Source: a virus (taxonomy: Duplodnaviria > Caudoviricetes). Taken from it: DNA of 32,306 bases. Shown here piece after piece: positions 3,529-29,182 of the stretch; position 1 is the stretch's first letter, and each line of letters begins with the position of its first letter. The DNA is taken from the IMG/VR virus record IMGVR_UViG_3300038393_000409, positions 1 through 32,306 of that record. The stretch is one strand, 5' to 3'. A program made the position numbers and the translations under genes. The notes beneath the pieces were generated by a model, which had not been told where the DNA came from, did no database searches, and saw only the letters and a program-made list of their open reading frames with translations.

Positions 3529-3558
3529 ACTAAATACTTCATATCAACTATGGAGTAT
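3529..3558 (+). promoter_or_regulatory. Late promoter variant ACTAAATA plus RBS-sequestering hairpin
   Basis: ACTAAATA at 3529-3536. ATACTTCATA (3534-3543) pairs with TATGGAGTAT (3549-3558, one G-U), burying the GGAG RBS of the ATG at 3562. Confidence 0.72.
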
Positions 3559-3561
3559 GCA

Positions 3562-4179
3562 ATGTCTGGATTCATTTATCTTTGGTATGATCGAAAACAT
3601 GAAAGATTTTATTTAGGTAAGCATTGGGGTACTGTAGACGATGGATATATTTGTTCATCTACATGGATGAAAAATGCTTATAAACGTCGATCTAGTGATT
3701 TCAAGCGTAAGATTCTCGAATGGGTTTATACTGATAGAAAAGATCTTGCAGACGCAGAACACCGATGGGGTTCTATGATTAAAAAGGAAGAACTAGGTAA
3801 GAAATATTATAATCTAAAGATTCCCAGAGATCGTCATTGGTATGATGATTCCGACCAACTACTCAATGTCGGTCAGAAAATTTCTAAGATCCTAACAGGA
3901 AAAACAATCTCAGATGAAACGCGTCAAAAAATGTCAAAACCTAAGTCTGAAGAACATCGACGAAAAATGTCAAAACCTAAGTCTGAAGAACATCGACGAA
4001 AAATGTCAAAACCTAAGTCTGAAGAACATCGACGAAAATTATCAGAAGTAATGAAAGGTAGAGAAAATTTTCTTAAAGGTAAAAATGCTCCTATAGTTTC
4101 TTGCCCTCACTGCGGAAAAGAAGGTGGAATACACGCTATGAAACGTTGGCACTTTGGACATTGTAAAAATAGAACATGA
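3562..4179 (+). CDS. Free-standing GIY-YIG/Seg-like homing endonuclease with NUMOD3-type repeats
   Basis: GFIYLW...FYLGKH.G..DDGYICSS, YYNL, SEETRQKMS/SEEHRRKMS repeats, C-terminal CPHCGKEG...MKRWHF..CK; AT-rich. Confidence 0.85.
   Translation: MSGFIYLWYDRKHERFYLGKHWGTVDDGYICSSTWMKNAYKRRSSDFKRKILEWVYTDRKDLADAEHRWGSMIKKEELGKKYYNLKIPRDRHWYDDSDQLLNVGQKISKILTGKTISDETRQKMSKPKSEEHRRKMSKPKSEEHRRKMSKPKSEEHRRKLSEVMKGRENFLKGKNAPIVSCPHCGKEGGIHAMKRWHFGHCKNRT
3931..4038 (+). repeat. Perfect 36-bp tandem repeat x3 (encodes MSKPKSEEHRRK)
   Basis: ATGTCAAAACCTAAGTCTGAAGAACATCGACGAAAA at 3931, 3967 and 4003. Confidence 0.97.
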
Positions 4180-8031: not shown

Positions 8032-8175
8032 ATGGGAACATTGATTTTGATTGCTTTAGTTGCAGCAGGTACTTACGTTGCTTGGAAGAAGTTCGGTAAG
8101 AAGTCGTCCGCTCCGGTAGTACAGTCCAACGCTGCACCGACACCCGTATCTAATACGACTTCTACAAAAGTGTAA
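8032..8175 (+). CDS. Small single-pass membrane protein, 47 aa (not in ORF track)
   Basis: AAGGAG RBS; MGTLILIALVAAGTYVAWKKFGKKSSAPVVQSNAAPTPVSNTTSTKV*. Confidence 0.75.
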   Translation: MGTLILIALVAAGTYVAWKKFGKKSSAPVVQSNAAPTPVSNTTSTKV

Positions 8176-8183
8176 CTAACCCC

Positions 8184-8213
8184 TTGATCCTGTAAAACGT
8201 TTTACAGGATCAA
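8184..8213. terminator. Perfect 30-bp palindrome; probable terminator overlapping a putative early promoter
   Basis: TTGATCCTGTAAAACGTTTTACAGGATCAA is self-complementary and followed by CTTTT. GTGTAA (8170-8175)-N17-TAAAAC (8193-8198) overlaps it. Confidence 0.7.
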
Positions 8214-8232: not shown

Positions 8233-8769
8233 ATGACAGATGAGATAGACGCTATTCCTCAGGGAAATCTCCATGAGATCGTAAAGAGCAGAGCGGCTCT
8301 TTTGAAACCGTGCGAGGAATTTGATTTCACTAATCCTCAAGTTGATCCGATCCAGTTAGCCGCAGATCTCGTTAAGACGATGTATGCGTATAATGGCATT
8401 GGTCTAGCTGCTAATCAGATCGGTGTTCCATACCGCGTTTTTGCTATGCGAACTGCGCCGAAAAATACTGTAGTCTTCAATCCCAAGATCATTCACTACG
8501 AACCGGAAACCGAGCTTCTAGAAGAAGGTTGTTTGTCATTTCCTGGTTACGTTGTCAAGATAAAGAGATATAAACTCATTCGAGTTCGCTTCTCCTATCC
8601 AAACGGTGAAGTGAAGACAGAAACCTACAAGGGATTAACATCTCGTGTTTTTCAACACGAGATGGAGCATTTAAACGGACAGATATTCTACGACAACGCA
8701 TCTAAGTATCACCGCGATCAAGCGGATCGTCGATTTAAGAAATATGAGAGGAATAAGAAAGCAGCATGA
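8233..8769 (+). CDS. def: Peptide deformylase
   Basis: GIGLAANQIG, EGCLSFP and QHEMEHLNG motifs. Confidence 0.95.
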   Translation: MTDEIDAIPQGNLHEIVKSRAALLKPCEEFDFTNPQVDPIQLAADLVKTMYAYNGIGLAANQIGVPYRVFAMRTAPKNTVVFNPKIIHYEPETELLEEGCLSFPGYVVKIKRYKLIRVRFSYPNGEVKTETYKGLTSRVFQHEMEHLNGQIFYDNASKYHRDQADRRFKKYERNKKAA

Positions 8770-9461
8770 GTGAGCAGGAATATTCGGATATCGTTAGTGA
8801 GTGCGCTGAAACGAGAGTAGATCTCGACACTGTTCTACACCCAACGTTTAACGGGCTTAAGAAAGCTTTCTCTATTTTATTTGAAGATTTTGGATATACG
8901 AAAAGTGATTTCAAGCGTTTATCAGATTCTGTGTACTATCAAGGAGGCTACCCAAGCCTTACTTCTCCAGCTAAGGAAGTAGCTCTGGCTGACCAAGTTT
9001 CAAAGCTACTTCGTCTACAGAAGATCGCTGGTCGGACAACATTGATTAAGTATTTTGAAGATAGAGGTGTGAAGATCGAATTCGTTGATGATTTTGTTCC
9101 AGAATCATTTCTGTCTTCATTTTCAAATGATGATGATAAAGACTTTACTGAAGCGCTTCAGTCGGCTGGTATACCCACTTCTGATATCGTCGATTCACGT
9201 TCGAAAATGCTCAAAGTGCTTTTAGATCGTGCACAGAACCTTCAGAAGGAGATCTGTCAGACTGCTGATACAATTAAAGTCGATGCAGCAGAAGAAGTTG
9301 AGACTCGCTTTAAGATCAAGAGACCTCACTTCGTCAAAGCTGTAAATCTCGCAGCAGTGAAGATGAGGAGAGGTGAGGGTCCGATGCTCGAGAAAATTGA
9401 GAATCTTCATGATTCTCAGGATAATCTCAACCAAGCACTTGAACCTCTGGAGAAGAACTAA
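8766..9461 (+). CDS. Hypothetical protein, possibly with a DsbA/GapR-like helical DNA-binding domain
   Basis: Long ORF coupled to def. The C-terminal helical pattern (LLDRAQNLQKEI...IK...E..F.IKRPHF.KAV.L) loosely resembles T4 DsbA/GapR; function is inference only. Confidence 0.45.
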   Translation: MSEQEYSDIVSECAETRVDLDTVLHPTFNGLKKAFSILFEDFGYTKSDFKRLSDSVYYQGGYPSLTSPAKEVALADQVSKLLRLQKIAGRTTLIKYFEDRGVKIEFVDDFVPESFLSSFSNDDDKDFTEALQSAGIPTSDIVDSRSKMLKVLLDRAQNLQKEICQTADTIKVDAAEEVETRFKIKRPHFVKAVNLAAVKMRRGEGPMLEKIENLHDSQDNLNQALEPLEKN

Positions 9462-9463
9462 AA

Positions 9464-9493
9464 GTTTACAGACTTCTTGATTTGAAGTACAAA
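9464..9493 (+). promoter_or_regulatory. Early (sigma70-type) promoter for the RNA genes
   Basis: AAAGTTTACA (T4-early-like -35, TTTACA 9465-9470), 17-nt spacer, TACAAA 9488-9493; predicted start at about 9499. Confidence 0.55.
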
Positions 9494-9498
9494 GTGAA

Positions 9499-9611
9499 TT
9501 GGGATGCACGTGGCTCAGTAATGGCGTCCACATTAGTGTGAATGAATAACGGATAGAGTTCACACAGCCTACCGTCAAAGTGATGTTCCGTGTAAGCTTT
9601 GACCATCCCAA
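9499..9611 (+). ncRNA. Unassigned structured RNA (multi-way junction with possible kissing loops)
   Basis: Closing stem TTGGGATG/CATCCCAA; inner stems GTGG/CCAC with a GTAA tetraloop, GTGTGAAT/GTTCACAC and GTCAAAGT/GCTTTGAC; loop segments ACGGA/TCCGT are complementary. Confidence 0.65.
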
Positions 9612-9619
9612 CTATTTCA

Positions 9620-9694
9620 GCACCTATAGTTCAGATGGTAGAACAGGGCTTTCAATCCTCGCTGTCGGCGGTTCGATTCCGTCTAGGTGCGCCA
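9620..9694 (+). tRNA. Atypical tRNA-Glu(UUC)-like gene
   Basis: Acceptor GCACCTA/TAGGTGC + G-CCA; D arm GTTC/GAAC; T arm GGCGG-TTCGATT-CCGTC; anticodon loop CTTTCAA on an only 4-bp AGGG/TCCT stem. Confidence 0.75.
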
Positions 9695-9727
9695 TTTCAT
9701 TCCGCAATAATTAAAAGGAGAAGTGTT

Positions 9728-10153
9728 ATTTCGAGCAATTGGATTTACGACATCGCCGACATGCATGAGTACTATAACATGGATGTCGCTTTCGACGAAA
9801 TTACTCTGGACAAGGAAAAAGCGAAGAAGCTTCTTGAGTTTAGAATTAACTTTCTTCAAGAAGAACTCAATGAACTGAAGAGCGCTGATAATGGGGAAGA
9901 CGTTGTCGATGCACTTATTGATCTGTGTGTTGTAGCTGTTGGCACTCTCGATGCGTTTGGTGTAGATTCGTATCAGGCTTGGGACAACGTTCTCGATGCT
10001 AATATGAATAAGAAACCTGGAATCAAAGCAGATCGTCCGAATCCGTTGGGTCTACCAGATCTGATTAAACCGGAGGGATGGGAAGCACCGTCTCATAAAG
10101 ACAACATCGGGACACTCGACATCATCTTTAAGAAGCCGGTGTGTGATTTATGA
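9728..10153 (+). CDS. All-alpha NTP pyrophosphohydrolase (MazG/PRA-PH-like; candidate dUTPase/dCTPase)
   Basis: LQEELNEL...VVDALIDL acidic motif, ANM.K, PDL.KP.GW.AP. Start is either ATT at 9728 (7 nt after AGGAG) or ATG at 9761. Confidence 0.8.
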   Translation: MSSNWIYDIADMHEYYNMDVAFDEITLDKEKAKKLLEFRINFLQEELNELKSADNGEDVVDALIDLCVVAVGTLDAFGVDSYQAWDNVLDANMNKKPGIKADRPNPLGLPDLIKPEGWEAPSHKDNIGTLDIIFKKPVCDL

Positions 10154-10782
10154 TGATCAACGAGAGTGACGTAATTCAACTTCAAAACACACCTGAAGCT
10201 ATTATCGATGCTCGAAATCTCGTTGGTTTCGAGCAGATGGTACGTAATAACTTTGGGCGTGTTTCGAACAAGAGGACTCTGAATCAAGTTCAATACGACA
10301 CGGCCTCTGGATTCGGTCTAGAAGACTACTTCACATCGACTGGCCTCTTCGTTCCCGCGAATCCCATCTATGAGAATCCAAACGAACACCCATGGTCGGA
10401 GATCGCCGTGGATTTGTACTATGGTTCTGAGTGTGTTCAGGTCAAATCCTTTACTCATTTGAGTAAGAGAGGAGACATGGTCTGGATCAGTCCAGCGACG
10501 TATGATTCAATCAAGAAATCGACTACACATAACGATTTCTTTTTATTTGGTTTTACAAAAGGTGTGAAACCCGATAGAGATAATGGATCAACAACGTTTA
10601 AATATAGGCCTGCTTTTTCAATTGCTTCGTCGGTTATATTGAACTTTATTCAAGCAAACATTGAAGAGCATTCATTGGCGGTCTCCTTAAGACTAATTCT
10701 TGATAGAGACTTGCTTATTCGTCCAAAGTATTTTCAGCCCCTCTGTCCAGAGCTTATGAAACTAGTGGAGTTAGCTAATTGA
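10150..10782 (+). CDS. PD-(D/E)xK-type nuclease, possibly DenB (endonuclease IV)-like
   Basis: LEDYF...P.W...VDL....VQVKS...WIS...DFFLF...YRP.F follows the motif order I recall for T4 DenB; located in the hmC cluster. Confidence 0.45.
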   Translation: MMINESDVIQLQNTPEAIIDARNLVGFEQMVRNNFGRVSNKRTLNQVQYDTASGFGLEDYFTSTGLFVPANPIYENPNEHPWSEIAVDLYYGSECVQVKSFTHLSKRGDMVWISPATYDSIKKSTTHNDFFLFGFTKGVKPDRDNGSTTFKYRPAFSIASSVILNFIQANIEEHSLAVSLRLILDRDLLIRPKYFQPLCPELMKLVELAN

Positions 10783-11237
10783 GTGAAATGAAAGTTCGTT
10801 CACCTGAGCGTGAATCTGTAAAAGTACTTCGTGAATGTATTGAACTTCAACTAGCGAAGTCTCAAGACTATCAAAATCCAAACTCGAACGTCGTTCAAGC
10901 CGATCACTATCGTCGAGGTATCGATACGATTTTTGATACGATGAATGGCAAGATGCTTCGGATCCAGTCACTGCTTGAAGCTTCTGCTGCTGGTGTTAAG
11001 CCTAAACATGAGTCGATTGAGGATTCTCTTAAAGACTTGATAAATTACGCGAGCTTTGGTGTATCATGGCTTCGCGGTATGATGGAAGGGCAAAAGCCGG
11101 ACCGTGATATGTTTAATAGGAAGAAGCCTCCCGAACTCACTGGTAATTTGACGAGTGGTGCTCAAGATCCGAAGCGCTATCTCGTTTCAGATAAGACGGA
11201 TGAATGGGACTTCCGTAACCCTTCAATTAACCGATAG
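10779..11237 (+). CDS. Nucleotide-modification-associated domain 1 (DUF1599-like) protein
   Basis: K..DY...K..R...ESIEDSL.DL.NYA motif; directly upstream of the hydroxymethylase; TTG start. Confidence 0.7.
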   Translation: MSEMKVRSPERESVKVLRECIELQLAKSQDYQNPNSNVVQADHYRRGIDTIFDTMNGKMLRIQSLLEASAAGVKPKHESIEDSLKDLINYASFGVSWLRGMMEGQKPDRDMFNRKKPPELTGNLTSGAQDPKRYLVSDKTDEWDFRNPSINR

Positions 11238-11244
11238 GAATAAA

Positions 11245-12030
11245 ATGCAGGGATATCGAGATAATAGAATTCTAGAAGTACGATCGCAGTTCACAGATCT
11301 TCTGCTTCGTGAGCAGTTTGTGATCGATAAGACTGGTGTTAAGACGATAGAGATCGTTGGAGCTGACTTCATCGCTGATGAACCTCTTATTTTTGGTGAA
11401 GTAAACGAAGACTACGTTTCACGTGAGCTCGAGTGGTATCAATCGATGTCTCGAAACGTCAACGACATTCCTGGTGGTCCACCGAAGATCTGGCAGCAGA
11501 TCGCATCGAAAGAGATCATTCCTGAATTGAATACTGAGCGTGTCGGATACATCAATTCAAACTATGGATTTATCTTGTACTCCGCTGAGAATTTCTATCA
11601 GTGGAGGAACGTGATCGAGGAGCTCAAGAAGAATCCGCTCTCACGCAGGGCACTGGCAATCTACAATCGTCCCTCTATGCACGAAGACTACAACAAGGGT
11701 GGTATGTCAGATTTCGTCTGTACGAACGCAGTTCAGTACTTGATTCGTGATGGTCTTCTAGACGTTGTAGTTCAGATGCGGAGCAACGATGTCTGGGCGG
11801 GTTATAGAAACGACTACGCTTGGCAAAGACACGTTCAGCACAACATGGTTGATGTTTTGAACCAGAGCTTTGGTGGTGAGCTTGACGCCGGCACAATTCA
11901 CTGGCAAGTCGGTTCTCTTCATTGCTATGAGAAGGACTTCTACCTAGTCGATCACTACGACAAGACTGGTCAGATCTCTATTAAGAAATCTGAGTATCGC
12001 GAGAAATATCCGGAGTCACCATGGAAGTAG
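11245..12030 (+). CDS. gp42: dCMP hydroxymethylase (thymidylate synthase fold)
   Basis: INSNYG, SRRA, RPSMH.DY...GMSDFVCTN.VQYLIRD, MRSNDV..G.RNDYAWQ (Asp at the cytosine-specificity position), GSLHCY..DFYLVDH..KTG closely follow T4 gp42. Confidence 0.92.
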   Translation: MQGYRDNRILEVRSQFTDLLLREQFVIDKTGVKTIEIVGADFIADEPLIFGEVNEDYVSRELEWYQSMSRNVNDIPGGPPKIWQQIASKEIIPELNTERVGYINSNYGFILYSAENFYQWRNVIEELKKNPLSRRALAIYNRPSMHEDYNKGGMSDFVCTNAVQYLIRDGLLDVVVQMRSNDVWAGYRNDYAWQRHVQHNMVDVLNQSFGGELDAGTIHWQVGSLHCYEKDFYLVDHYDKTGQISIKKSEYREKYPESPWK

Positions 12031-12938
12031 AGATTCCCAAGTGGGATAAGCGCTTTCTCGATGTTGCTAAGAATGAGATAGCTACGTGGTCAAAAGACCC
12101 GAGATCAAAGCTCGGTGCGGTAGTCGTTATCGATCGTCGAATCGTTGCGACGGGCTATAATGGGTTTCCCGAAAGATTTCCAGACGATGAGGAGTTATAC
12201 AACGATCGTGACGTAAAGCTGAAGTATGTAGTTCACGCTGAGGAGAACGCAATCTACAACGCTGCGCGAAACGGAGTTTCCTTGAAAGGAGCGACGCTCT
12301 TTGTAGATGGTATCGCTACTTGCTCTGAGTGCGCTAAAGCTGTGATACAGTCTGGTATCAAGCGAGTTGTTATGAGATATAAGCCCATGAAGTCTAAGTG
12401 GGCTGCGTCTTTTGAAGATACGAAGTTTATGTTTCAGAAGTGCGGTGTTGAGTTCGTGTGTTATGAAGTTCCCTCTACAAAGGAAATAGAGTATATTTCA
12501 ATTCATACTGGACAAGTGTTCGTAGGTGATCGCGTTGAGAAGAATGAAGTCGATTATGAAGGATATAAACGTCTGCCGTTCTATAGAAGTGATCTAGAAG
12601 CAAGATATACATTTCCACCGTCTACATCGGCAACACCCGTAACTGTAACGTATCTGTCGATATCAAATGCGAACGGAGTCATTAAAGCCGTTCTCCCTCT
12701 CTTTCAGAAAGAACATATCCCATACAGTTCAGAACCGCAGATCAACCTTAAGTTCACAGAAGATTTTTGGGAAAGACACGACCGTGAGCAAGAAGAAAAT
12801 AAACGTTCTCTTCGTGGGAATGAATCCAGCGGATCGACCGACGATCGGAATGAAGCCGAACCAAACGTTCAAGAAGCTGTCGGCGTGGGTAGACAACATG
12901 GATCTCGGTGTGATATCCTTCGTCAACTCTGTCCCTGA
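12021..12938 (+). CDS. cd: dCMP deaminase with ~150-aa C-terminal extension
   Basis: WSKDP...GAV, GYNG, HAEENAI and C..C (CSEC) zinc motifs in the first ~150 aa. Confidence 0.85.
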   Translation: MEVEIPKWDKRFLDVAKNEIATWSKDPRSKLGAVVVIDRRIVATGYNGFPERFPDDEELYNDRDVKLKYVVHAEENAIYNAARNGVSLKGATLFVDGIATCSECAKAVIQSGIKRVVMRYKPMKSKWAASFEDTKFMFQKCGVEFVCYEVPSTKEIEYISIHTGQVFVGDRVEKNEVDYEGYKRLPFYRSDLEARYTFPPSTSATPVTVTYLSISNANGVIKAVLPLFQKEHIPYSSEPQINLKFTEDFWERHDREQEENKRSLRGNESSGSTDDRNEAEPNVQEAVGVGRQHGSRCDILRQLCP

Positions 12939-13164
12939 TCGAGGCGCAGCTAAGATGGAATACGTTCAGTGGGATCTACTTCGGGAAGTGACTAAATATC
13001 ATGAAAAGATCGTTGCGCTGGGTGGATTTGCATCGAGAGTTCTCGATAAGTTGAATGTAGATCACTTTAAGCTTCCGCACCCATCACCGAGAAATCGTCT
13101 TCTGAATGATAAAGAGTTTGAACGCGCTGAGCTGAAGCGCTGTAAGGAGTATATCGAATCGTGA
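12784..13164 (+). CDS. Uracil-DNA glycosylase superfamily protein (minimal)
   Basis: VLFVGMNP, IVALG..AS and LPHPSPRNR motifs; likely GTG start at 12784. Confidence 0.75.
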   Translation: MSKKKINVLFVGMNPADRPTIGMKPNQTFKKLSAWVDNMDLGVISFVNSVPDRGAAKMEYVQWDLLREVTKYHEKIVALGGFASRVLDKLNVDHFKLPHPSPRNRLLNDKEFERAELKRCKEYIES

Positions 13165-14402
13165 TTAGCAATGTAGTTACACTTCTTGGAAGAGGTGTAG
13201 AAGGATGCGGAGTAACGAAGTTCACTATTGAACTTCAGAAGTACTTGAAGAAAAAAGGCATCAACAATCCAGTGATCGCTCTGAAGGATAAGACGTGGTC
13301 TCGGAAAGATTCCCATGAACTCGATTGCCTTCAGTTCAAGTTTGCTAAGGATGATCAGTTCAAGCACGCTATGGACATCATTAATAAAGCTGATGTGGTC
13401 ATCGTCAACTCCCTCCCATCAGTTCAAGTAAAGAAGACCGTCAAAGCACACGATGCCAAGGCCGTTGACAACTTTCTAGAGTGCATTTCTGAGTGCAAGC
13501 CCCCAATTATTATGATCCAGCACGATCATAATAAACTGTCGCTGCGTAGAAACGCAGGCACTGAGATTCTCGTAGATCGCGCTGCGGCTATCTTTGCACA
13601 CTCAACGACCGGACACTTCGCTGAGCAGGTGGCGTCATTTTCAGGTGGTGAAGGACTCGAGACTCTGTTTTCTCCTGGAAGGCAGATTGAAACGTTTCAA
13701 CCGGCGTGCGACTTTGATCTTCTCTGTGGAAGATATTGGTGTCCTATAGAAGAGCAAGATGATAGATTGTGTCGGTGGATTGGACGAACGACTTTTTGGA
13801 AAGGCTTCGTTCCAATGTTTGATTTCCACAACAATTATCTGCGTGATGCTGGATTTGCCACTGTCCTAGAAGGCATCGAAAAATCACCGGCGTATCTCGA
13901 CTTCAAGACGAAGTCGGTGTTTGTTGATATGCTGGCAAACAAAGATCCAAACACCGTTGATATGAAGGACTATCGCGGAAAAGACGCCGTAGTGTTCTCT
14001 GTATATAACAATGACGCCATGCTTAAGCGCATGGCACGAACGGCTTTTGGGTTTCAACTGTCGCTTCTAGATACAAAATTCATTGATAAGTCAGTGGAAT
14101 ACACCCACTGTGAGATTCCCGCAGTCGGTGCACTTCCAGTCTTTAGGAAAGAGTTCGGTGATGCTTGCACTCATCGTGTAACAGGCAACAAGTTAACTGC
14201 AGATGATTCTGGAACGATCTGGCTTCCAACGAATAAAGATGAGATGGGAGCGGCGTTTGAGACTATGAAGCGTCTGGTTGAAGACCCTTATGAGCGACAT
14301 GAGCAGCGTCTGAAAGCGTTTGAGTACTATAAAGCTCACCAAGACTCGCAGTTTGTTTTTGAAGATTTGATGAGGAAGATTGAAAATGCCGTACATTCAT
14401 GA
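13161..14402 (+). CDS. agt: DNA alpha-glucosyltransferase (hmC glucosylation)
   Basis: GRGVEGCGVTKF, QHDH..LSLRRN, RWIGRTT.WKGF..MFDFH, EG.EKSPA, EYTH.E, DSG.IW and HQDS.F.F are colinear with T4 Agt. Confidence 0.92.
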   Translation: MISNVVTLLGRGVEGCGVTKFTIELQKYLKKKGINNPVIALKDKTWSRKDSHELDCLQFKFAKDDQFKHAMDIINKADVVIVNSLPSVQVKKTVKAHDAKAVDNFLECISECKPPIIMIQHDHNKLSLRRNAGTEILVDRAAAIFAHSTTGHFAEQVASFSGGEGLETLFSPGRQIETFQPACDFDLLCGRYWCPIEEQDDRLCRWIGRTTFWKGFVPMFDFHNNYLRDAGFATVLEGIEKSPAYLDFKTKSVFVDMLANKDPNTVDMKDYRGKDAVVFSVYNNDAMLKRMARTAFGFQLSLLDTKFIDKSVEYTHCEIPAVGALPVFRKEFGDACTHRVTGNKLTADDSGTIWLPTNKDEMGAAFETMKRLVEDPYERHEQRLKAFEYYKAHQDSQFVFEDLMRKIENAVHS

Positions 14403-14658
14403 AGATGCACGTCAGAATCTACATGATCACTATCTTAGTTCACTCGGTGAAGCGTGTTATACGCCCGGCGAGTTGAACTACGTTATCACGACTATCTGTG
14501 ATTCTTATCTTGGTGCTAACATTATTTCATACACACGATGTAACGAGATCATCGGTGCTCTGGAGTGTGCTAAGCAGGAGTTCTATCGTCGTCTCGTAGC
14601 ATCGTATGAAGATAAGAAAATGCTCGAAAACGGCGATGTTTATCGAACACGAATATAA
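14386..14658 (+). CDS. Conserved phage hypothetical protein
   Basis: TPGELNY.IT...Y...NEIIGALECAK.EFYRR....YED.K..ENGDVY, a pattern I recognise from phage nucleotide-metabolism clusters. Confidence 0.7.
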   Translation: MPYIHEDARQNLHDHYLSSLGEACYTPGELNYVITTICDSYLGANIISYTRCNEIIGALECAKQEFYRRLVASYEDKKMLENGDVYRTRI

Positions 14659-14661
14659 ATA
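14654..14661 (+). promoter_or_regulatory. T4-type late promoter TATAAATA
   Basis: Exact consensus, ending 18 nt upstream of the ATG at 14680. Confidence 0.6.
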
Positions 14662-14679
14662 GCTCAGAGGTTTTACATT

Positions 14680-15153
14680 ATGAAATCATACAAAGTCTAT
14701 ACTGCAGGACCTATCACCGGCTGCTCTTGGGGTGGATGCACTAATTGGCGTGAGTACGTAGAAAAGCAGTTGGACGACATCTCAGATGGTAGGATCGTTG
14801 CATACTCTCCACTTCGCTCGAAGGAATACCTTTCCAACGAGAAAGAGATTCTAGACGTCTATCCAGACACGCTCTCTGTGATGTCGACTCAACGCGGCAT
14901 CTTTCATCGAGACCGCAACGACGTTAAGACATCCGATCTCGTGTTCGTAAATATGATCGGCGCTGGTCGAGTCTCCATCGGTACAGTGATGGAGATAGCA
15001 TGGGCTGATGCATGGAACATTCCCATTGTTTATCTGACAGAGAAAGATGTTCCAAATATTCATGATCACGCTATGATGCGCGAAGCTTGCCCATTTACAG
15101 TCCATGATATGGAGGAAGCTATCCTTCTTACGAAAAAAATTCTCTTACCATAA
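14680..15153 (+). CDS. Nucleoside 2-deoxyribosyltransferase/DNPH1-MilB-like N-glycosidase
   Basis: VYTAGPI, RD..DV..SD.V.V and SIGTVMEIAWA (catalytic Glu) motifs. Confidence 0.82.
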   Translation: MKSYKVYTAGPITGCSWGGCTNWREYVEKQLDDISDGRIVAYSPLRSKEYLSNEKEILDVYPDTLSVMSTQRGIFHRDRNDVKTSDLVFVNMIGAGRVSIGTVMEIAWADAWNIPIVYLTEKDVPNIHDHAMMREACPFTVHDMEEAILLTKKILLP

Positions 15154-15163
15154 AGGAATACAT

Positions 15164-16375
15164 TTGAAATTCGCGGGAATTATTCCACTGATCGGTGGAA
15201 TGGATATTGGAACGGCTAAAGCTTTTAATCAAGATCCAGAGTATCTTATTTCATATAAAGCGTTTTGGAATAATGATCGACACATCGTCAATCATTACCA
15301 GAGCACGCTCAGTAAAGACGTTCCATACTACGTAATAGACAACGGTGATTCTCCGCACACTAAAGTAGACGTTGTTCACAGCACGTGCCCTTGTGCGGGC
15401 TTGTCTCAGTTGTCTCATGGATACGGTGACGATAATCCTGCAAATGACTGGATGCCAAAAGCAGCCGAATATGTTCTGGGAACGATTAGACCAGCTGCTT
15501 ACTTCGGTGAGAACGCTCCTGGTCTAGCCGGCAAGATCGGTCAGAACGTACGCGCTAATTTAATCAGCATTGGAAAGAAGTATGGTTATACTGCTTCTTT
15601 CTATCGTACTCGATCACTCCTGCACGGCATCCCTCAAGTTCGGGAGCGTTCGTTCTATTTCTTCTGGAAAGGCAATAAGACACCCATCTTGAACTACTAT
15701 AACGAGCCTCATCAGAAGATTGAAGACTTGATCATCAACGTTAAGTCGAATTCTCAGATGGATCCAATTAACCCAAAAACTCCGTCGGAATCGGATCCGT
15801 ACTATCGCTTTATTCTAGAAGTAATTCATGGTGGAATCTCACACCGAGAATTTTCAACAAAAGTTCTTGAACCTTTAAAAGCTCGCGGCAATGATTCGTT
15901 GTCATATATCGAGCTTCAGGGTTATAATTACACTCAAGTCGGCGAGTGGATGGCGAAGCAGGGTCTCGAAAGAGAAGTCGCCAAGTGTGCTAAAAGACAA
16001 GCTAAGCTCGACGCCGGCGGAAACCTGATGCGCCGTGGAACGGTTGTTCCCAAGGACTACATCGGTGCGTTTGTAGGGCATTATCCTACTTGTCTAACAC
16101 ATCCGATTCACGATCGCTTCATCACTTATCGTGAAGCTATGTCTATCATGGGACTTCCTGAGAACTTCGAACTTCTCGATCCGAAGAAGTCAGCTAATCA
16201 CATCTGCCAGAACGTTCCCGTTAAAACTGCTCATGATATGGCTGTGGAAGTTCGTGAAGCACTTAACGGAAACAGGCAGTGGGTTAATAAACCTTTGGTG
16301 TTTCAATACAATCATACACAGAAGCACGTGTATGAGAAGGAAGCACCTAGAACACTTGAGGATATTTTGGCATGA
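15164..16375 (+). CDS. DNA cytosine-C5 methyltransferase homologue with degenerate SAM-binding motifs
   Basis: TCPCAGLS (motif IV), GENAPGL (VI), PQVRERSF (VIII), RFITYREAM.IMG.PENF (IX). Motif I reads IPLIGG and motif X reads CQNVP. TTG start after AAGGA. Confidence 0.8.
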   Translation: MKFAGIIPLIGGMDIGTAKAFNQDPEYLISYKAFWNNDRHIVNHYQSTLSKDVPYYVIDNGDSPHTKVDVVHSTCPCAGLSQLSHGYGDDNPANDWMPKAAEYVLGTIRPAAYFGENAPGLAGKIGQNVRANLISIGKKYGYTASFYRTRSLLHGIPQVRERSFYFFWKGNKTPILNYYNEPHQKIEDLIINVKSNSQMDPINPKTPSESDPYYRFILEVIHGGISHREFSTKVLEPLKARGNDSLSYIELQGYNYTQVGEWMAKQGLEREVAKCAKRQAKLDAGGNLMRRGTVVPKDYIGAFVGHYPTCLTHPIHDRFITYREAMSIMGLPENFELLDPKKSANHICQNVPVKTAHDMAVEVREALNGNRQWVNKPLVFQYNHTQKHVYEKEAPRTLEDILA

Positions 16376-16575
16376 CAACAAAGATTCACATTATTCACGG
16401 CGGAGGAAACCACGTCATCTCAGGTCGTGTTGTTGAACAACAGGAAGATGGTTCTATATACGTTGGAGATAGAACCGATCTTTTAAATCCAGGCGACTAC
16501 GCTCATTTTTATGTGTGGGGGAACAGAAAACTCATTATAGAGGAGAAGCCCATTGACCAAAATAATTCTGTTTAA
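16372..16575 (+). CDS. Small hypothetical protein
   Basis: ATGA coupling to the upstream gene; GAGG RBS. Confidence 0.6.
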   Translation: MTTKIHIIHGGGNHVISGRVVEQQEDGSIYVGDRTDLLNPGDYAHFYVWGNRKLIIEEKPIDQNNSV

Positions 16576-17140
16576 CGGCCCACCGCGTTCTGGAAAAGAT
16601 ACAGCCGCTCTCAGAGTCCAGAAGATCTTTTCATCTATTAGCGCTGATTCTCGTGTTGATTTTGATCGATTTGCAATGCCGCTTAAGGCTGCTTTTGCTG
16701 GTGTTGTAGGAGCTGACATGGATGAATATGGAAATGTAGAACCTTACGAAAGCACTAAAGGAGACATCATCCCTGAATTTAATTGTTCATATCGCCAGTG
16801 GCAGATCGATTTTTCAGAATCGTACATGAAGCTAAAGTACGGTTCGGACATTTTTGCACGACTCTTCGTTCAGCGAAATAGAAACACGAGTGCAACGGCT
16901 ATCGTTGTTCCCGATTCGGGATTCAAGGAAGAAGCTAAGCCAATTGCTGATGCTTTTGGTCTGGAGAACACTCTTCTGATCAGATGCCATCGTCCAGGCT
17001 ACGACTTTACTGGAGATTCTAGATCATACATCTCCGGCATCTCGCCGAATGAAGTAGACGTACACAACGATACGACGATCAATGAGTACTACGAAAAGAT
17101 CACGATCATCGTTGCTGAGTTCTTAAGGAAGAAAGGATAA
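16553..17140 (+). CDS. Deoxynucleoside monophosphate kinase (gp1-like)
   Basis: IILFNGPPRSGKDT P-loop, FA.PLK, R...ID.SE...K..YG.DIF and VVPD.GF.EE motifs; TTG start after GAGGAG. Confidence 0.8.
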   Translation: MTKIILFNGPPRSGKDTAALRVQKIFSSISADSRVDFDRFAMPLKAAFAGVVGADMDEYGNVEPYESTKGDIIPEFNCSYRQWQIDFSESYMKLKYGSDIFARLFVQRNRNTSATAIVVPDSGFKEEAKPIADAFGLENTLLIRCHRPGYDFTGDSRSYISGISPNEVDVHNDTTINEYYEKITIIVAEFLRKKG

Positions 17141-17141
17141 A

Positions 17142-17996
17142 ATGGTTGAAATTACAGTACCAATGTCGGAGCTGAGAAAGAACAAGCTCTTCATCGCGAC
17201 TCCGATGTATGGTGGAATGTGTGCTGGTATGTTCACTAAAGCTATTGCAGATCTAACTGCTCTGTGTGCGGTGAATGGGATTGAGATCATGCTCTACTTC
17301 CTCTCGAACGAATCACTTATCACTCGTGCTAGGAACTACTGCTGCGATGCGTTCCTGCGATCTGGCGCTACTCACTTGATGTTCATCGACGCGGACATTG
17401 GCTTTACACCGCAAGATGTTATTGCTCTGATGGCTATGACGGCTGATCCGAACTCACCGTACGACGTCATCGGTGGTCCTTATCCCAAGAAGTGCATCTC
17501 TTGGGAGAAGATCAAGATGGCTGTTGATCAGGGTAAAGCCGAATCAGATCCAAACATCCTGGAGAAGTTCGTCGGCGACTACGTCTTTAATCCTAAAGTA
17601 GGCACTGGCTCATTTCAGATCAGTGAACCCGCTGAAGTTCTGGAGATTGGTACTGGTTTCATGATGATTCCACGAAGGACTTTAGAGAAGTTCCTTCAAG
17701 CTTATCCTGAATCAACGTATCGCCCGGATCACGCACGCATGGCTGATTTCGATGGATCTAGGGAGATCGGTATGTACTTCCAAGCTGATGTAGACCCTAA
17801 AACAAAACGATATCTTTCGGAGGATTATTGGTTTACACAGAGGTGTATCGACGCTGGTTTGAAAGTGTGGCTCTGTCCATGGATGTCGATGAATCACGTA
17901 GGAACATATGTGTTTGGTGGTTCACTCGCTGATCTAGCTACGATCGGCGCATCGGCTACTGTTGATCCAGCTCAACTTAAGAAGAAAAAGAATTAA
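17142..17996 (+). CDS. GT-A fold glycosyltransferase
   Basis: IATPMYGG, NESLITRARN, FIDADIGF (DxD), GTGFM.I.R, YLSEDYWF, HVG. Confidence 0.8.
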   Translation: MVEITVPMSELRKNKLFIATPMYGGMCAGMFTKAIADLTALCAVNGIEIMLYFLSNESLITRARNYCCDAFLRSGATHLMFIDADIGFTPQDVIALMAMTADPNSPYDVIGGPYPKKCISWEKIKMAVDQGKAESDPNILEKFVGDYVFNPKVGTGSFQISEPAEVLEIGTGFMMIPRRTLEKFLQAYPESTYRPDHARMADFDGSREIGMYFQADVDPKTKRYLSEDYWFTQRCIDAGLKVWLCPWMSMNHVGTYVFGGSLADLATIGASATVDPAQLKKKKN

Positions 17997-18015
17997 CGGA
18001 GAAGAAATTTAGATT

Positions 18016-18693
18016 ATGGCACAGAAGATTAGGCTATCACTGGAGACGATTGCGATCCTTCGCAACTTTGCTTCGATCAACAAGTCCCTGCTCTTTCGTC
18101 AAGGGAATGAGATTTATACTATCTCAGAAGCCAAGAGCATCATGGTCAAGGCTACCATCGCTGAGAGTTTCGAGAGCGACTTTGCGATCTACGACATCAA
18201 TCGTCTTCTGGCGGTGATGTCGCACTTTGAAGATCCCGAGCTCTTGATTGGTGATAAGTTCATCACCATCAAAGAGGGAAAGAAGCAGCTCAATTATACG
18301 TTCGCTGATCCCAGGCACATCAACTCAGTTGATCCTGAAACGTTCAAGAAGCTGATCGCAGTCGTCGAGAAGGGAGAGATCGAGTTTCCATGGAGCAACG
18401 ACGTGTTCGCCGACGTCAACAAAGCTCTGCTGATCATGAAGCTTCCTGAGTTCGAAGTCGTAGGTAATGGTGAGACTGTTAAGCTCCGGGCGCTCGATTC
18501 TAAGAATCCGACTGGAGACACATACGAAGCTGAGCTCGATGCTACGACGGAGACGTTTACAGCTCTATTCAAGTCGGAGAACATCAAGTTTCTACCGCTT
18601 GATTACACTGTGAAGTATTCATCACGTGGAATCGCTCGCTTCGGGTCGGAGAACATCACATATCTTGTAACAACTGAAAGCAAAAAGAAGTGA
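18016..18693 (+). CDS. gp45: Sliding clamp gp45
   Basis: LS.ETI.ILRNFASIN.SL..RQG...FAIYD...LL; synteny with gp44/gp62. Confidence 0.9.
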   Translation: MAQKIRLSLETIAILRNFASINKSLLFRQGNEIYTISEAKSIMVKATIAESFESDFAIYDINRLLAVMSHFEDPELLIGDKFITIKEGKKQLNYTFADPRHINSVDPETFKKLIAVVEKGEIEFPWSNDVFADVNKALLIMKLPEFEVVGNGETVKLRALDSKNPTGDTYEAELDATTETFTALFKSENIKFLPLDYTVKYSSRGIARFGSENITYLVTTESKKK

Positions 18694-18998
18694 CAGTATT
18701 TAAGAAGTATAAGAGAAAACCAGTCGTTGTTGAAGCAGTTCAGTGGACTACAGAAGCGATGAAGTTCGCCGGTCTAACCGCGAAGCCCATCATCGATGAG
18801 ATCAACGCTTCAGGCGGTGAAGCTTCCGTCTCCCGTGATGTTTACACTCTAGAATACACGATGCGGATCGCGACACTGGAAGGTGTAATGACGGCCCGCG
18901 TAGGTGATTACATCTGTCGAGGTGTTAAGGGAGAGTATTGGCCAGTGAAGCCCGATGTGTTTGAATACACGAACGAACCGTATACAGGAGATATGTAG
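18690..18998 (+). CDS. Conserved phage hypothetical protein
   Basis: YKRKPVVVEAVQW...I.TLEG.M.A..GDYI.RGVKGE.WPVKPD.FE.T, a widespread phage motif. Confidence 0.7.
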   Translation: MTVFKKYKRKPVVVEAVQWTTEAMKFAGLTAKPIIDEINASGGEASVSRDVYTLEYTMRIATLEGVMTARVGDYICRGVKGEYWPVKPDVFEYTNEPYTGDM

Positions 18999-19292
18999 AT
19001 GTGCGCAGTTAGTATGGTCTCAGATCGATATACTGATCTTTGGAAAGAGCGTGGTTTCATCACGACTTTTCCTAGTATACCGAATCAATCACAGTTTGCC
19101 GTTGATCCTGAAAAGATCACGCGCGCGGAGTTTGATCAGCTCAAGAAGGAAGTACTTGAACTTAAGGACTGGATCATTCGTGCTAAGCAGTACGACATCG
19201 ACAACAATGAGCCGGAGTGTGAGCTCGAGGAGAAGACTGCTCTGATCAAGAAGATCGCTGAGCTCGTCGGCGTCGAGATCGATATCAAGTGA
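18999..19292 (+). CDS. Conserved hypothetical protein (MCAVSMV.D start)
   Basis: AGGAG RBS; coiled-coil segment with AK.YD....EP.CE..EK motif. Confidence 0.65.
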   Translation: MCAVSMVSDRYTDLWKERGFITTFPSIPNQSQFAVDPEKITRAEFDQLKKEVLELKDWIIRAKQYDIDNNEPECELEEKTALIKKIAELVGVEIDIK

Positions 19293-19306
19293 GAAATACA
19301 CAAAAA

Positions 19307-19347
19307 GTGTCAAAGTCAGGCTCAGTAGAGTAAAATCAACTGAGCCT
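19307..19347 (+). promoter_or_regulatory. Hairpin with a -10 element in its loop, upstream of gp44
   Basis: AGGCTCAGT (19318-19326)/ACTGAGCCT (19339-19347) flank TAAAAT (19331-19336); AAAAGTGTCA upstream; T-rich tail. Confidence 0.55.
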
Positions 19348-19365
19348 TTATATTATGGAGTTAGA

Positions 19366-20310
19366 ATGTCTGACGAATATCTTTGGACTGAGAAGTTTAG
19401 ACCGAATAAGATTGCCGATGTTATTCTGCCGGAAGATCTTAAGAGAGTGTTCCAGACGTACGTAGACCAGAAGAACGTACAGAACCTCCTTTTGACTGGA
19501 AACGCCGGTGTTGGTAAGACTACAGTCGCTAAGGCGATGCTTAAGGAGATTGGTTCCGACTACATCGTCGTGAATGGATCGCTCGATCGAAACATCGACA
19601 CTCTTCGGAACGAGATAACTCAGTTTGCATCGTCTATCTCGTTCTCCGATGGACGAAAGTACGTGATCCTAGACGAAGCCGATCACCTGAATCCCAATAG
19701 CACTCAACCGGCTCTTCGCAACTTCATGGAGGAGTTCTCGAACAACTGCGGCTTCATCCTAACGGCGAACTATCCAAATAAGATCATTGAAGCTCTGCAG
19801 AGTCGGTGTTCCATCATCGATTTCAAGATCAAGAAGAGTGATATGGCCAAGCTCGCTGTTCAGTTTATGAAGCGAGTGGAAGTGATCCTTGAACAGGAGA
19901 GCGTCGAGTACGATAAGAAAGCTCTCGCTGCTGTGATCCAGAAGTGGTTTCCTGACTGGCGACGCGTGCTCAATGAGCTTCAGCGATACTCAGCGACCGG
20001 AAAGATCGATTCTGGAATTCTCGTTAACCTTGAGTCAGTTTCACTAGATGAACTCATTGGTTATATGAAGAAGAAGGAGTATTCAAACGTACGAAAATGG
20101 GTCGCGGAGAACTCCGATACTTCACAGCAAGCGGTATTTCGTAAGTTCTATGACGCAGCATCTGAGCAACTCGATCCGAGATTCATTCCCGCTCTGGTTA
20201 TGACTCTGGCAAAGTATCAGTATCAGGCTGCATTCAGTGTAGATCCGGAGATCAACCTCTCAGCTTGTCTAGCTGAGATTATGATCGAGGGATCGGGAAT
20301 GTGGAAATAA
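19366..20310 (+). CDS. gp44: Clamp loader large subunit gp44
   Basis: LWTEKFRP, GNAGVGKTT, ILDEAD, ALRNFMEEFS, SRC, FPDWRR.LNELQRYS. Confidence 0.96.
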   Translation: MSDEYLWTEKFRPNKIADVILPEDLKRVFQTYVDQKNVQNLLLTGNAGVGKTTVAKAMLKEIGSDYIVVNGSLDRNIDTLRNEITQFASSISFSDGRKYVILDEADHLNPNSTQPALRNFMEEFSNNCGFILTANYPNKIIEALQSRCSIIDFKIKKSDMAKLAVQFMKRVEVILEQESVEYDKKALAAVIQKWFPDWRRVLNELQRYSATGKIDSGILVNLESVSLDELIGYMKKKEYSNVRKWVAENSDTSQQAVFRKFYDAASEQLDPRFIPALVMTLAKYQYQAAFSVDPEINLSACLAEIMIEGSGMWK

Positions 20311-20313
20311 TCG

Positions 20314-20700
20314 ATGGCTGAGAAAGTATCACCGTTTGTATGGGTAGACGCGATCACTCAGAAGAAGGGCGATCCTATGGTTGAGTACGGAGAGAAGGAG
20401 TATCCAGCATTCATGGTCAATCGCTCCCTCTCCTACTATCCAGATACGATCCTTCATGCAGCTGAGATCAACCTCTATCAGTATCTAGATCATAAGCTTC
20501 AGTATGATTATTATCGAGAAGCGATTCGGACTAAGAAGAGGTTTGCTAAATGGGGAAAGAAGAACTCCTCAGAGGACGTTAAGTTCCTGATGGAAGCCTA
20601 CTCGTTTTCCAGAGTGAAAGCTGAGCAAGCGGCGTCTATCCTCACTCCCGAACAGATCGAAGAGATGCGGGAGTTTAGAAGTCGAGGCGTGGAGAACTAA
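20314..20700 (+). CDS. gp62: Clamp loader small subunit gp62
   Basis: Y..FMVNRSLSYY.DTI..A.E.N......KLQYDY...IR.KKRF.KW; follows gp44. Confidence 0.9.
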   Translation: MAEKVSPFVWVDAITQKKGDPMVEYGEKEYPAFMVNRSLSYYPDTILHAAEINLYQYLDHKLQYDYYREAIRTKKRFAKWGKKNSSEDVKFLMEAYSFSRVKAEQAASILTPEQIEEMREFRSRGVEN

Positions 20701-20703
20701 GTA

Positions 20704-20745
20704 AAAGCCTAAATACAAAGCCAGTATAAAAATAAGAAGGCTTTG
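20704..20745 (+). promoter_or_regulatory. Late-promoter variant CCTAAATA and hairpin over the regA RBS
   Basis: CCTAAATA at 20708-20715. CAAAGCC (20716-20722) or AAAGCCT (20704-20710) can pair with AGGCTTTG (20738-20745). Confidence 0.45.
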
Positions 20746-20748
20746 GTT

Positions 20749-21150
20749 ATGCAGAAGTTGATTGATACATTTATCGAGATCGAGCCGTTAGATCGTCCTC
20801 AGTTTCTAAAAGTAAAAGAAACGCTCACTCGAATTGGTATTTCAAAAGATAAAACTCTCTATCAGTCCTGCCACATTCTCCAGAAGCGCGGTCGCTACTT
20901 CATCACGCATTATAAGGAGATGAGGCTACTTGATGGTATGGACGCTGGATTCGATGATGAGGATCGCGCTCGTCGAAATACTATAGCGGATCTACTTGAA
21001 CAATGGGACCTAATCCGCATCAGGACACCCAAGAACGTTATCTCGGAAAAGATTGAAGGACCCCTTCGGGAGAAGATTAGAGTGATCCACTTTGACGAGA
21101 AGAAGGAATGGACACTATCTCCAAAGTATGCTATTGGAAAGAAGAAATAA
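20749..21150 (+). CDS. regA: Translational repressor RegA
   Basis: FLKVKETLTRIGI...LYQSCHILQKRGRYFI.HYKE...LDG...RRNTIA.LL..W, K.EW.L.PKY.IG. Confidence 0.95.
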   Translation: MQKLIDTFIEIEPLDRPQFLKVKETLTRIGISKDKTLYQSCHILQKRGRYFITHYKEMRLLDGMDAGFDDEDRARRNTIADLLEQWDLIRIRTPKNVISEKIEGPLREKIRVIHFDEKKEWTLSPKYAIGKKK

Positions 21151-21251
21151 TGCGTTGGATTGTAGCAGCACTTTGTTTGATTGGTTTCTTGGTCGTTGCT
21201 AATAACACAGGACTTCTTCGAATCATCATTCCTTGGTTACTTGGAACTTGA
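21150..21251 (+). CDS. Very small hydrophobic protein, 33 aa (not in ORF track)
   Basis: TAATG coupling to regA; MRWIVAALCLIGFLVVANNTGLLRIIIPWLLGT*; ends just before a terminator. Confidence 0.55.
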   Translation: MRWIVAALCLIGFLVVANNTGLLRIIIPWLLGT

Positions 21252-21254
21252 ACG

Positions 21255-21290
21255 AAAAAAACCCCGGGACGAATCCCGGAGTTAATTTTT
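21255..21290. terminator. Bidirectional intrinsic terminator between convergent genes
   Basis: A-run, CCGGGA-CGAA-TCCCGG stem-loop (TTCG loop on the minus strand), T-rich tail. Confidence 0.75.
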
Positions 21291-21337
21291 ATGAACTAGA
21301 TGATCTCCATTCGATGAAGAATGTCAACAGCTAAAAT

Positions 21338-21769
21338 TTAGCCATTTTCATCCCGAAATGATCCATCTGGAAAGATTATCCGGATCATCCTGCCTCTTTT
21401 TCTCGAATACCGAATAGTGTACCACGTACCAGATCTAAGTTGCTCCAGATATTGAGCCGGAGTAGCTATCATTCTCAGAGCTTCGCTGACTATGTCTCGA
21501 TTTCTCGGTAGATAGTCCCGTAAGATCCGAGACTCATCGCCTAAAACGAACGCTCTCTTTGTATGATTGATGGGAGGATGAACTATGATCCTCCAGTGAG
21601 GACAGACTTCTTTAACGATGAAGTGCGCTTGTTCATCGGAACCTATGCAGTCTCCATGATGAAACTCAGTTGGAAATTGTTTTGAATCCCAGGATATGAT
21701 AGTCTCAGCGAACGCTACTCTCTGAGCTTTGCTCATTCCGTTTTGATTTCCAGTGAATCCTATCTTCAT
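21338..21769 (-). CDS. SLOG-family (DprA/YspA-like) nucleotide-binding protein
   Basis: KIGFTG, HHGDCIG.DE.AH, YL.RNRDIV and SGTW.TIRY motifs. Confidence 0.75.
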   Translation of the reverse strand: MKIGFTGNQNGMSKAQRVAFAETIISWDSKQFPTEFHHGDCIGSDEQAHFIVKEVCPHWRIIVHPPINHTKRAFVLGDESRILRDYLPRNRDIVSEALRMIATPAQYLEQLRSGTWYTIRYSRKRGRMIRIIFPDGSFRDENG

Positions 21770-28413: not shown

Positions 28414-28426
28414 TATCCAATACCAG

Positions 28427-28541
28427 ACATCGGCATCTGACCATCCAATAAGATATGTATAAGGTGTATATTTCATTTGTTATTTAGGAAAAGTGAACGT
28501 TCGGAAAATATTTGCAATAAGCTATTTACATCGGCATCTGA
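28427..28541 (+). repeat. 14-bp direct repeat ACATCGGCATCTGA (x2) in intergenic DNA
   Basis: Copies at 28427-28440 and 28528-28541; the core CATCGGCAT also occurs at 22596-22604. Confidence 0.8.
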
Positions 28542-28555
28542 TCCGGATATAAATA
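28525..28555 (+). promoter_or_regulatory. Composite early/late promoter
   Basis: TTTACA (28525-28530)-N17-TATAAA; the -10 is also an exact TATAAATA (28548-28555). Confidence 0.7.
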
Positions 28556-28645: not shown

Positions 28646-29182
28646 TTAATTGGGCAACAATAAGCTCTGGATAAGAAGTGTAGTCTTCGGATTACGCTTC
28701 TTTCCTAGTTTTGCGGCTCTCATTTTAGCTTTTGTTTCTTCACTATGCGGTTTACGTTTTTTGCCAGCGGTTGCTAAACGTAATTTTTCTCGATGTTCAG
28801 GTGATTTAGGATTTGGGCGTCCGCGTTTTTTAACACTAATTATCGCTTTAGCTTCTTCGGTGTGTTTCCATCCTCTGCGCCTACCTGTGATACTTACAGC
28901 TTTATTTGTATATAACGAATTTTTCACGACTTTTAATTTTTGATGAAAATATTTCTCTTTAGCTGATGCTTCTTCGTAATTAGAATATTGCGTTAAAATT
29001 ATCGTTTTGAATAATTCGGGATGATTTTTAATTTCATCCCACCAAATACTTCTATAATCGCGGGACGCAACTGATCCACGATAACCTTTCTCGATGCGTT
29101 TTATATCGCAGCAAACGCCGATATAGAAAGGTGGAAGGCGATTGCCTTTATAAATCGTTAAGTAAGTGCAAGAAATTTTCAT
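28646..29182 (-). CDS. Free-standing GIY-YIG/Seg-like homing endonuclease with NUMOD3 repeats (inverted)
   Basis: CTYLT.Y...PPFYIG...GY.GS, E...KE, YTN; KHTEEAKA, SPEHREKL and HSEETKAKMR motifs; AT-rich; minus-strand ATAAATA at 29187-29193. Confidence 0.82.
   Translation of the reverse strand: MKISCTYLTIYKGNRLPPFYIGVCCDIKRIEKGYRGSVASRDYRSIWWDEIKNHPELFKTIILTQYSNYEEASAKEKYFHQKLKVVKNSLYTNKAVSITGRRRGWKHTEEAKAIISVKKRGRPNPKSPEHREKLRLATAGKKRKPHSEETKAKMRAAKLGKKRNPKTTLLIQSLLLPN

Follow-up and report, generated by a model that had tools for sequence, protein, structure and literature searches.

The 113-nt segment at positions 9499-9611 of a T4-like phage DNA is, as judged from sequence comparison, a real structured RNA, of which the helices termed P1a and P2 have been kept by compensatory change. 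The RNA, which is absent from catalogues and belongs to a phage lineage that is rare and uncultured, is known from two sequences. The evidence for the fold, the surroundings of the element, and the explanations that may account for it are presented below.

The Phage and Its Relative

The DNA that harbors the element (the window, i.e., the whole stretch of 32,306 nt that was analysed) is a 32.3-kb linear virus record with an estimated completeness of 18%, and it contains a T4-like gene set, which was assigned with PHROG and Pfam as UvsW, gp55, gp47, gp46, gp45, gp44, gp62, RegA, and gp43. The nearest cultured relatives are distant, the best record reaching 56% for the clamp loader and 45% for the DNA polymerase. 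Words of the element region are present in six soil and rhizosphere metagenome runs; the stretch 9466-9697 recurs with 0 differences on a single contig from a separate soil study (run X2), the element is not covered in runs X3-X5, and none of the runs listed for the stretch is an RNA run. The sole relative found to carry the element is a 117-kb phage record, designated here as G001, which was reached via the 231-aa protein encoded upstream and which carries the promoter motif, the element, the tRNA, and the MazG-like gene in the same order as the window. The features of the region are as follows.

8766-9461, plus strand: upstream gene, encoding a 231-aa protein that belongs to no recognized family (no PHROG or Pfam match; 14 homologues including itself; no solved relative)
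9465-9493, plus strand: predicted sigma70-like promoter TTTACA-17-TACAAA (motif match; TTTACG-17-TATAAA in G001)
9499-9611, plus strand: structured RNA with a four-way junction (minimum free energy fold; covariation with G001 in P1a and P2; P1 and P3 almost invariant)
9499-9506/9604-9611, plus strand: P1, closing helix of 8 bp
9510-9531, plus strand: P1a, hairpin with a GUAA loop and a 1x3 internal loop
9536-9543/9558-9565, plus strand: P2, 8 bp
9549-9553, plus strand: L2 segment ACGGA, predicted partner of L3 (complementary; invariant in 2/2 sequences; no covariation)
9566-9573, plus strand: P2-P3 junction, 8 nt
9574-9581/9596-9603, plus strand: P3, 8 bp, abutting P1
9587-9591, plus strand: L3 segment UCCGU, predicted partner of L2 (complementary; invariant in 2/2 sequences; no covariation)
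9612-9619, plus strand: spacer of 8 nt (9 nt in G001), which would remain on the RNA after a cut at the putative RNase P site
9620-9694, plus strand: gene of a tRNA or tRNA-like RNA, CCA included in the DNA, with a probable origin from Glu(UUC) (ARAGORN; Rfam tRNA)
9716-10153, plus strand: Shine-Dalgarno sequence (9716-9720) and gene of a MazG-like nucleotide pyrophosphohydrolase with an ATT start at 9728-9730 (phrog_671, PF01503)
10150-21150, plus strand: co-oriented gene run (PHROG/Pfam), presumably a single transcript, with a terminator-like hairpin at 21264-21279

In the family of the 231-aa protein, the motifs YYQGG(Y/W)P and QxxIC are invariant among the 14 members. Homologues with 46-87% identity sit on Logan, JGI, and ENA contigs of up to 178 kb, and distant copies occur in two jumbo phages, the one in RsoM2USA lying near tRNAs. 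Pfam, PHROG, the PDB, and the Atlas yielded no usable assignment for the protein, and a likeness to DsbA or GapR was unsupported (hhalign probability 0.2%). Elsewhere in the window, three homing-endonuclease-like ORFs (332-979, 3550-4179, and 28646-29182) lie within gaps of the blastn alignment with G001 and appear to be insertions that are absent from the latter. A small unlisted ORF of ~47 aa (8032-8175), which has a Shine-Dalgarno sequence and a hydrophobic N-terminus, follows the methyltransferase gene and precedes a hairpin (8184-8213) that strongly resembles a terminator.

Fold, Covariation, and Conservation

All the helices that an earlier note had drawn from the sequence were recovered by inspection and folding, including the GNRA-capped hairpin and the two 8-bp hairpins with U-G closure and 14-nt loops starting with GA, and its complementary loop segments were likewise confirmed in the sequence. 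P2 and P3 are pseudo-symmetric, each being composed of 8 bp, a U-G closure, and a 14-nt loop of the form GA...RA, with the complementary 5-mers both at loop positions 6-10. The kissing interaction between ACGGA and UCCGU is predicted; the chance of a 5-bp complement between shuffled L2 and L3 loops was 0.087, and 0.015 if both segments are central. A K-turn reading of the GA...RA loops was discarded, the required G being present in one of the four loops (by eye, against the K-turn consensus).

The folding energy of the element corresponds to a z-score of -2.06 (7/200 shuffles) and that of its G001 counterpart to -1.42 (19/200), and the minus strands fold as well as the plus strands in energy terms. 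When 12 shuffled windows were scanned with a loose descriptor of two hairpins with complementary loops and a closing helix, every one of them gave between 1 and 13 matches, so the architecture alone is no better than chance. In the full precursor of the window, P1 and P3 have a pairing probability of 0.11, compared with 0.92 and 0.97 in G001, and the low value is attributable to a competing element-tRNA fold (-57.4 vs -54.6 kcal/mol), which is not retained in G001.

Support beyond chance comes from the comparison of the two phages. The alignment of the element is gapless, and 21 of the 113 bases differ, 12 of them in stems. Among the 31 pairs, 24 are the same, five are changed on both sides, one is changed on one side with pairing kept, and one is broken. 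The covariation that the earlier note had named as a check was thereby observed as compensatory changes in P1a (two) and P2 (three) with one relative, but no two-sided change occurs in P1, in P3, or in the predicted kiss. When the same substitutions were placed at random, 0 of 200,000 trials reached five two-sided changes (null P < 5e-6). In a count that also took in the terminal pair and the predicted kiss, 98.6% of the cells were paired, versus 27-49% for slid-partner controls, and a within-pair shuffle gave 12/500, which is the practical floor with two sequences and so few changes. The conserved bases amount to 92/113 overall (P 9e-6) and to 33/36 in loops and junctions (P 8e-5), against a neutral identity of 62.4% between the window and G001 (932/1494 four-fold sites in 13 genes); covariation and conservation alike are drawn from these two distinct sequences. 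The covariation with G001 and the conservation of loops and junctions therefore indicate that the RNA is real and that selection acts on the sequence of its unpaired bases. Six G-U cells and the GNRA loop on the plus strand, alongside one A-C cell, point to the plus strand as that of the RNA.

The claim that no plausible ORF covers the element stands, because a 129-aa minus-strand ORF shrinks to 27 aa in the G001 copy and a 46-codon minus-strand ATG frame, although open in both phages, differs at 17 of its 46 residues, a divergence beyond that of 13 real genes (82-99% identity). No ORF over the element is accordingly conserved as a protein.

Searches for Homologues

A search of Rfam 15 over 9499-9611 returned no family at the gathering threshold, which was reached only by the tRNA behind the element, and at E<=10 only partial matches of 12-16 bits, far below the threshold, which bears out the description of the element as unassigned. 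The element or its G001 copy was compared by blastn with 50,697 phage records and with 72,556 plasmids; apart from matches to the tRNA, this gave a single 19-nt match, which is ascribed to chance. Motif scans were also conducted, the candidates of which were screened by structure, by a two-sequence covariance model (R1), and by nhmmer. In viral contigs, 1 of 15, 1 of 59, and 0 of 120 candidates proved real (the last scan over 23/64 parts), with nothing beyond G001; the corresponding figures were 0/119 for metagenomes (61/64 parts) and 0/16 for GTDB genomes. R1 on the scan loci (54, 100, 96, and 100 sources; about 350 loci) led to no acceptance beyond G001, a 12-bit match in RsoM2USA being rejected as a homologue, and the best outsider of nhmmer over 391 loci had an E value of 0.16 (19 metagenome loci were screened by nhmmer and structure only). 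On 55 whole records, R1 found 0/39 and 0/3, and besides G001 only a 12-bit and a 9.7-bit match among 5 and 8; the T4 genome gave no match. A tRNA-pattern scan, which returned 3 unrelated loci, is uninformative, because it missed the known positive G001 although G001 holds the pattern.

Since a two-sequence model detects close kin only, the blanks of R1 do not show absence, and the rarity of the element is shown at present sensitivity only, some scans having been partial and one having missed a known positive. Antisense matches to the element above 11 nt were not found in the window or in G001. The literature searched contains no description of the element, and its loop motifs are absent from the searchable part of the supplement to PMC10690425, whose 10,006 candidates may nonetheless include it.

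Promoter, tRNA, and Downstream Genes

Transcription generally starts 5-8 nt downstream of the -10 hexamer. The predicted +1 of the promoter at 9465-9493 is accordingly expected near 9498-9501, namely, at the first bases of P1, and its -10 lacks the T at -7. An E. coli-type promoter scan misses this site because the last T of the -10 is absent. The -7 T is missing from most alphaproteobacterial sigma70 promoters, according to PMC8407463, and its absence here is a weak hint of an alphaproteobacterial host. The motif derived from this site has one further occurrence in the window, at 28525, with 0 in 100 shuffles and 3 in G001; the other promoters with the same motif have no copy of the element, the covariance model finding one copy per genome. 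The view that the closing helix begins at the predicted transcription start is upheld as a prediction, in that a conserved motif match puts +1 at the 5' end. The element is likely transcribed from its own promoter. Near 28525, a 14-nt direct repeat, ACATCGGCATCTGA, was noticed (28425-28440 and 28528-28543) in a conserved intergenic region ahead of the genes of a NUMOD3 endonuclease and the DNA polymerase; its second copy lies inside a promoter in which a -35 of the sigma70-like type is combined with the TATAAATA of T4 late promoters. The repeat, of which there is also an incomplete copy near 22593, is a possible operator.

ARAGORN assigned the tRNA behind the element to SeC(tca) in the window, whereas its G001 counterpart was assigned to Glu(ttc). 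Rfam tRNA (RF00005) scored the two at 48.5 and 55.8 bits, and bases are missing from the 5' strand of the anticodon stem in these alignments. Selenocysteine tRNAs are distinguished by a UCA anticodon, a long variable arm, and an extended acceptor-T axis. This identity was rejected in view of the length of 75 nt, the 7-bp acceptor, the short variable region, the Glu(ttc) call of the G001 copy, and the match to RF00005; the SeC(tca) call is a register artefact, and the tRNA is probably derived from Glu(UUC), not SeC. The acceptor, D, and T arms and the CCA are identical in the two phages (positions 1-25 and 44-75, 57/57), and the surfaces read by RNase P are intact in both. The 18-nt anticodon arm (window 9645-9662; G001 locus L003 3881-3898) differs between the phages, its alignment needing an indel, and its 5' side is short by 2 nt and 1 nt, respectively. 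From the D stem to the loop there are 4 bases in the window and 5 in G001, versus 6 in a canonical tRNA. The loop CUUUCAA, as in Glu(UUC) tRNA, is kept in both, and an alternative drawing, in which two G-C pairs close an 8-nt loop CUUUCAAY, fits both as well. The short-armed tRNA is possibly nuclease-evading, frameshifting, or non-decoding. It has been proposed, in PMC10264068, that phage tRNAs alter their anticodon loops to escape host nucleases, a proposal that the odd anticodon arms of several G001 tRNAs fit. On the minus strand of G001 at locus L248 (121-199, 2207-2279, 4783-4857, and 45-114), there are tRNAs with non-canonical anticodon loops, one of 9 nt (Ile), one of 6 nt (unassigned), and an odd one (Met), together with a low-score tRNA-like element labelled Stop(tta) by ARAGORN. 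The element and its tRNA sit apart from the other 14 ARAGORN tRNAs of G001.

A rare AUU start may damp expression or couple it to IF3. The ATT (AUU) start of the MazG-like gene is located 7 nt past a good Shine-Dalgarno sequence and is kept in G001 (locus L003, about 3953-3970); in 14 of the 16 other homologues shown, an ATG is found at this position or within one codon of it. No terminator-like sites occur between 9499 and 10107, and the nearest ribosome-binding site (9716-9720) lies 105 nt past the element, behind the whole tRNA. The subsequent run harbors, within 10779-16375, genes for DUF1599, thymidylate-synthase-family, dCMP deaminase, UDG-like, DUF6899, nucleoside deoxyribosyltransferase-like, C5 methylase, and alpha-glucosyltransferase proteins (the last with 38% to Klebsiella phage enzymes), which suggest that this T4-like lineage, a non-enteric one, modifies its DNA with glycosylated cytosine. 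It further contains genes for a dNMP kinase, gp45, gp44, gp62, and regA, and a late-type TATAAATA site is present near 14654.

Proposed Function and Alternatives

The explanation placed first, in which our confidence is even, holds by analogy with T4 RNA C and RNA D that the element is a stable RNA released by RNase P, which acts as a protein-binding scaffold or decoy. Transcription from near 9499 would produce a precursor consisting of the RNA, the spacer, the tRNA, and the operon, in which P1 would close before the tRNA is made. A cut by RNase P at 9619/9620 would then set free an RNA of ~120 nt with its ends locked in P1. P2 and P3 would pack side by side via the 5-bp L2-L3 kiss over stacked sheared G-A pairs, and the invariant loops would bind a protein partner. 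Such a partner is suggested because the unpaired bases are invariant and no antisense target was found, and a scaffold or decoy is favoured because there is no antisense target above 11 nt and no terminator or ribosome-binding site in reach. The tRNA would serve at least as a processing signal, for which only the acceptor, D, and T arms are needed, and these are unchanged; RNase P is known to process T4 pre-tRNAs and tRNA-like substrates (PMC11143913). Weighing against a stand-alone RNA, the element heads a long gene run and is apart from the other tRNAs, which fits a cis role equally.

Such a cis role, the chief rival reading, is doubtful. The put RNA of phage HK022 and the Bacillus EAR are antiterminators that bind RNA polymerase, and, like the element, they are structured RNAs just past a promoter and at the head of a long operon. 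A comparable element at +1 would bind RNA polymerase and carry transcription through the 11.4-kb operon, or it would shield the 5' end. This accords with its start at the predicted +1, its place ahead of the co-oriented run from 9728 to 21150, its two adjacent hairpins with invariant loops, and the 18 terminator-like sites on both strands of 9400-21400 (9.4 +/- 2.9 in shuffles), although these internal sites are weak consensus matches. On the other hand, the element shares no sequence or model match with put or EAR, no Rfam leader matched at E<=10, same-motif promoters elsewhere have no copy, and a tRNA follows, where the expected RNase P cut, 8 nt downstream, would detach the element early. 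The ligand-sensing leader envisaged by the earlier note, for the operon downstream, is weakly supported. A purine-riboswitch-like aptamer formed by P2, the 8-nt junction, P3, and the kissing loops, which senses a nucleotide and gates the folding of the tRNA or its cleavage by RNase P and thereby the operon, is improbable. Two hairpins, an 8-nt joining strand (J2/3), and complementary loops do recall the purine riboswitch (RF00167), and nucleotide enzymes are encoded downstream; in addition, a pairing of 9569-9576 with 9634-9641, in the D-loop of the tRNA, can form in either phage, one C-to-U change being kept as a wobble, and the competing element-tRNA fold is present in the window. This pairing is nevertheless at chance level (helix length P 0.55 and 0.70; duplex energy P 0.19 and 0.77), and the competing fold is absent in G001. 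The junction is four-way rather than three-way, the loops have 14 nt, no J3/1 base exists, and RF00167 gave nothing at E<=10 in G001, while control genomes gave matches. A classical riboswitch is unlikely because no terminator or ribosome-binding site, i.e., no expression platform, is within reach of the element. The alternative pairing of GGCU with AGCC, which had been offered as a switch, is not conserved, G9513 being replaced by A in G001 and compensated within the small hairpin.

Quite improbable is a tRNA-processing switch, by which the junction strand of a nucleotide aptamer would pair with the D-loop of a crippled tRNA and the ligand would set the RNase P cut and thus the output of the DNA-modification operon, the AUU-start MazG gene first. 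If a put-like antiterminator or such a switch were true, it would represent a mode of control that was not found in the literature searched for T4-like phages. Csr-binding hairpins have GGA in the loop as a consensus, and known sponges carry many of them. A CsrA/RsmA-type sponge, in which two U-A pairs would close the loop that presents the ACGGA of L2, agrees with the invariant ACGGAU of L2 and with the 5-nt ACGGA loop closed in the minimum free energy fold; it is very improbable, in that the element has only one looped GGA, and the exact complement in L3 would mask it. That the segment produces no RNA of its own, being instead a palindrome that matters as DNA, the remnant of a tRNA, or a fold that arose by chance, has been largely refuted. 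The weak folding z-scores on both strands and the frequency of the loose architecture in shuffles would fit, but the five two-sided changes, the G-U pairs on one strand, and the conservation above neutral contradict it, and neither ARAGORN nor the Rfam tRNA model calls the element. The remaining probability belongs to mechanisms outside those listed.

Comparison with Known RNAs

The proposed stable RNA has its closest counterparts in phage T4. According to PMC9697503, the tRNA region of T4 yields two stable RNAs, RNA C and RNA D, to which no function has been assigned. RNA C (species 1, 139 nt) and RNA D (species 2, 119 nt) resemble the element in size, in their origin from a T4-like phage, and in tRNA adjacency, the element likewise adjoining a phage tRNA gene, being non-coding, and falling at 110-140 nt. 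The earlier suggestion of a stable phage RNA like these two consequently remains the best analogy by context, but no sequence match was detected (blastn, word size 7) and the folds differ, RNA C ending in a T-arm-like hairpin, unlike the element. Moreover, RNA C and RNA D are late RNAs from the end of a tRNA cluster, whereas the element follows a sigma70-like promoter and precedes a single tRNA and an operon.

tRNA-like processing signals are known from the plant mitochondrial t-elements and from mascRNA. These share with the tRNA behind the element a tRNA shape whose cleavage by RNase P would set the 3' end of the upstream RNA; unlike them, that tRNA keeps the CCA and the CUUUCAA loop and may still decode. 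GOLLD and ROOL are described in PMC12286853 as RNAs that phages encode close to tRNA genes, that contain kissing loops, and that have no assigned function, their length being 659 to over 800 nt; they are five to seven times larger than the 113-nt element, and, although both are in Rfam, they show no match to it. The stable small RNAs beside phage tRNAs, T4 RNA C and RNA D as well as GOLLD and ROOL, have gone without an assigned function for decades, and the element is easy to make and probe because it is small, its fold is clear and covaries, and both its promoter and its RNase P end can be predicted. By analogy, the element would have T4 RNA C and RNA D as its nearest kind.
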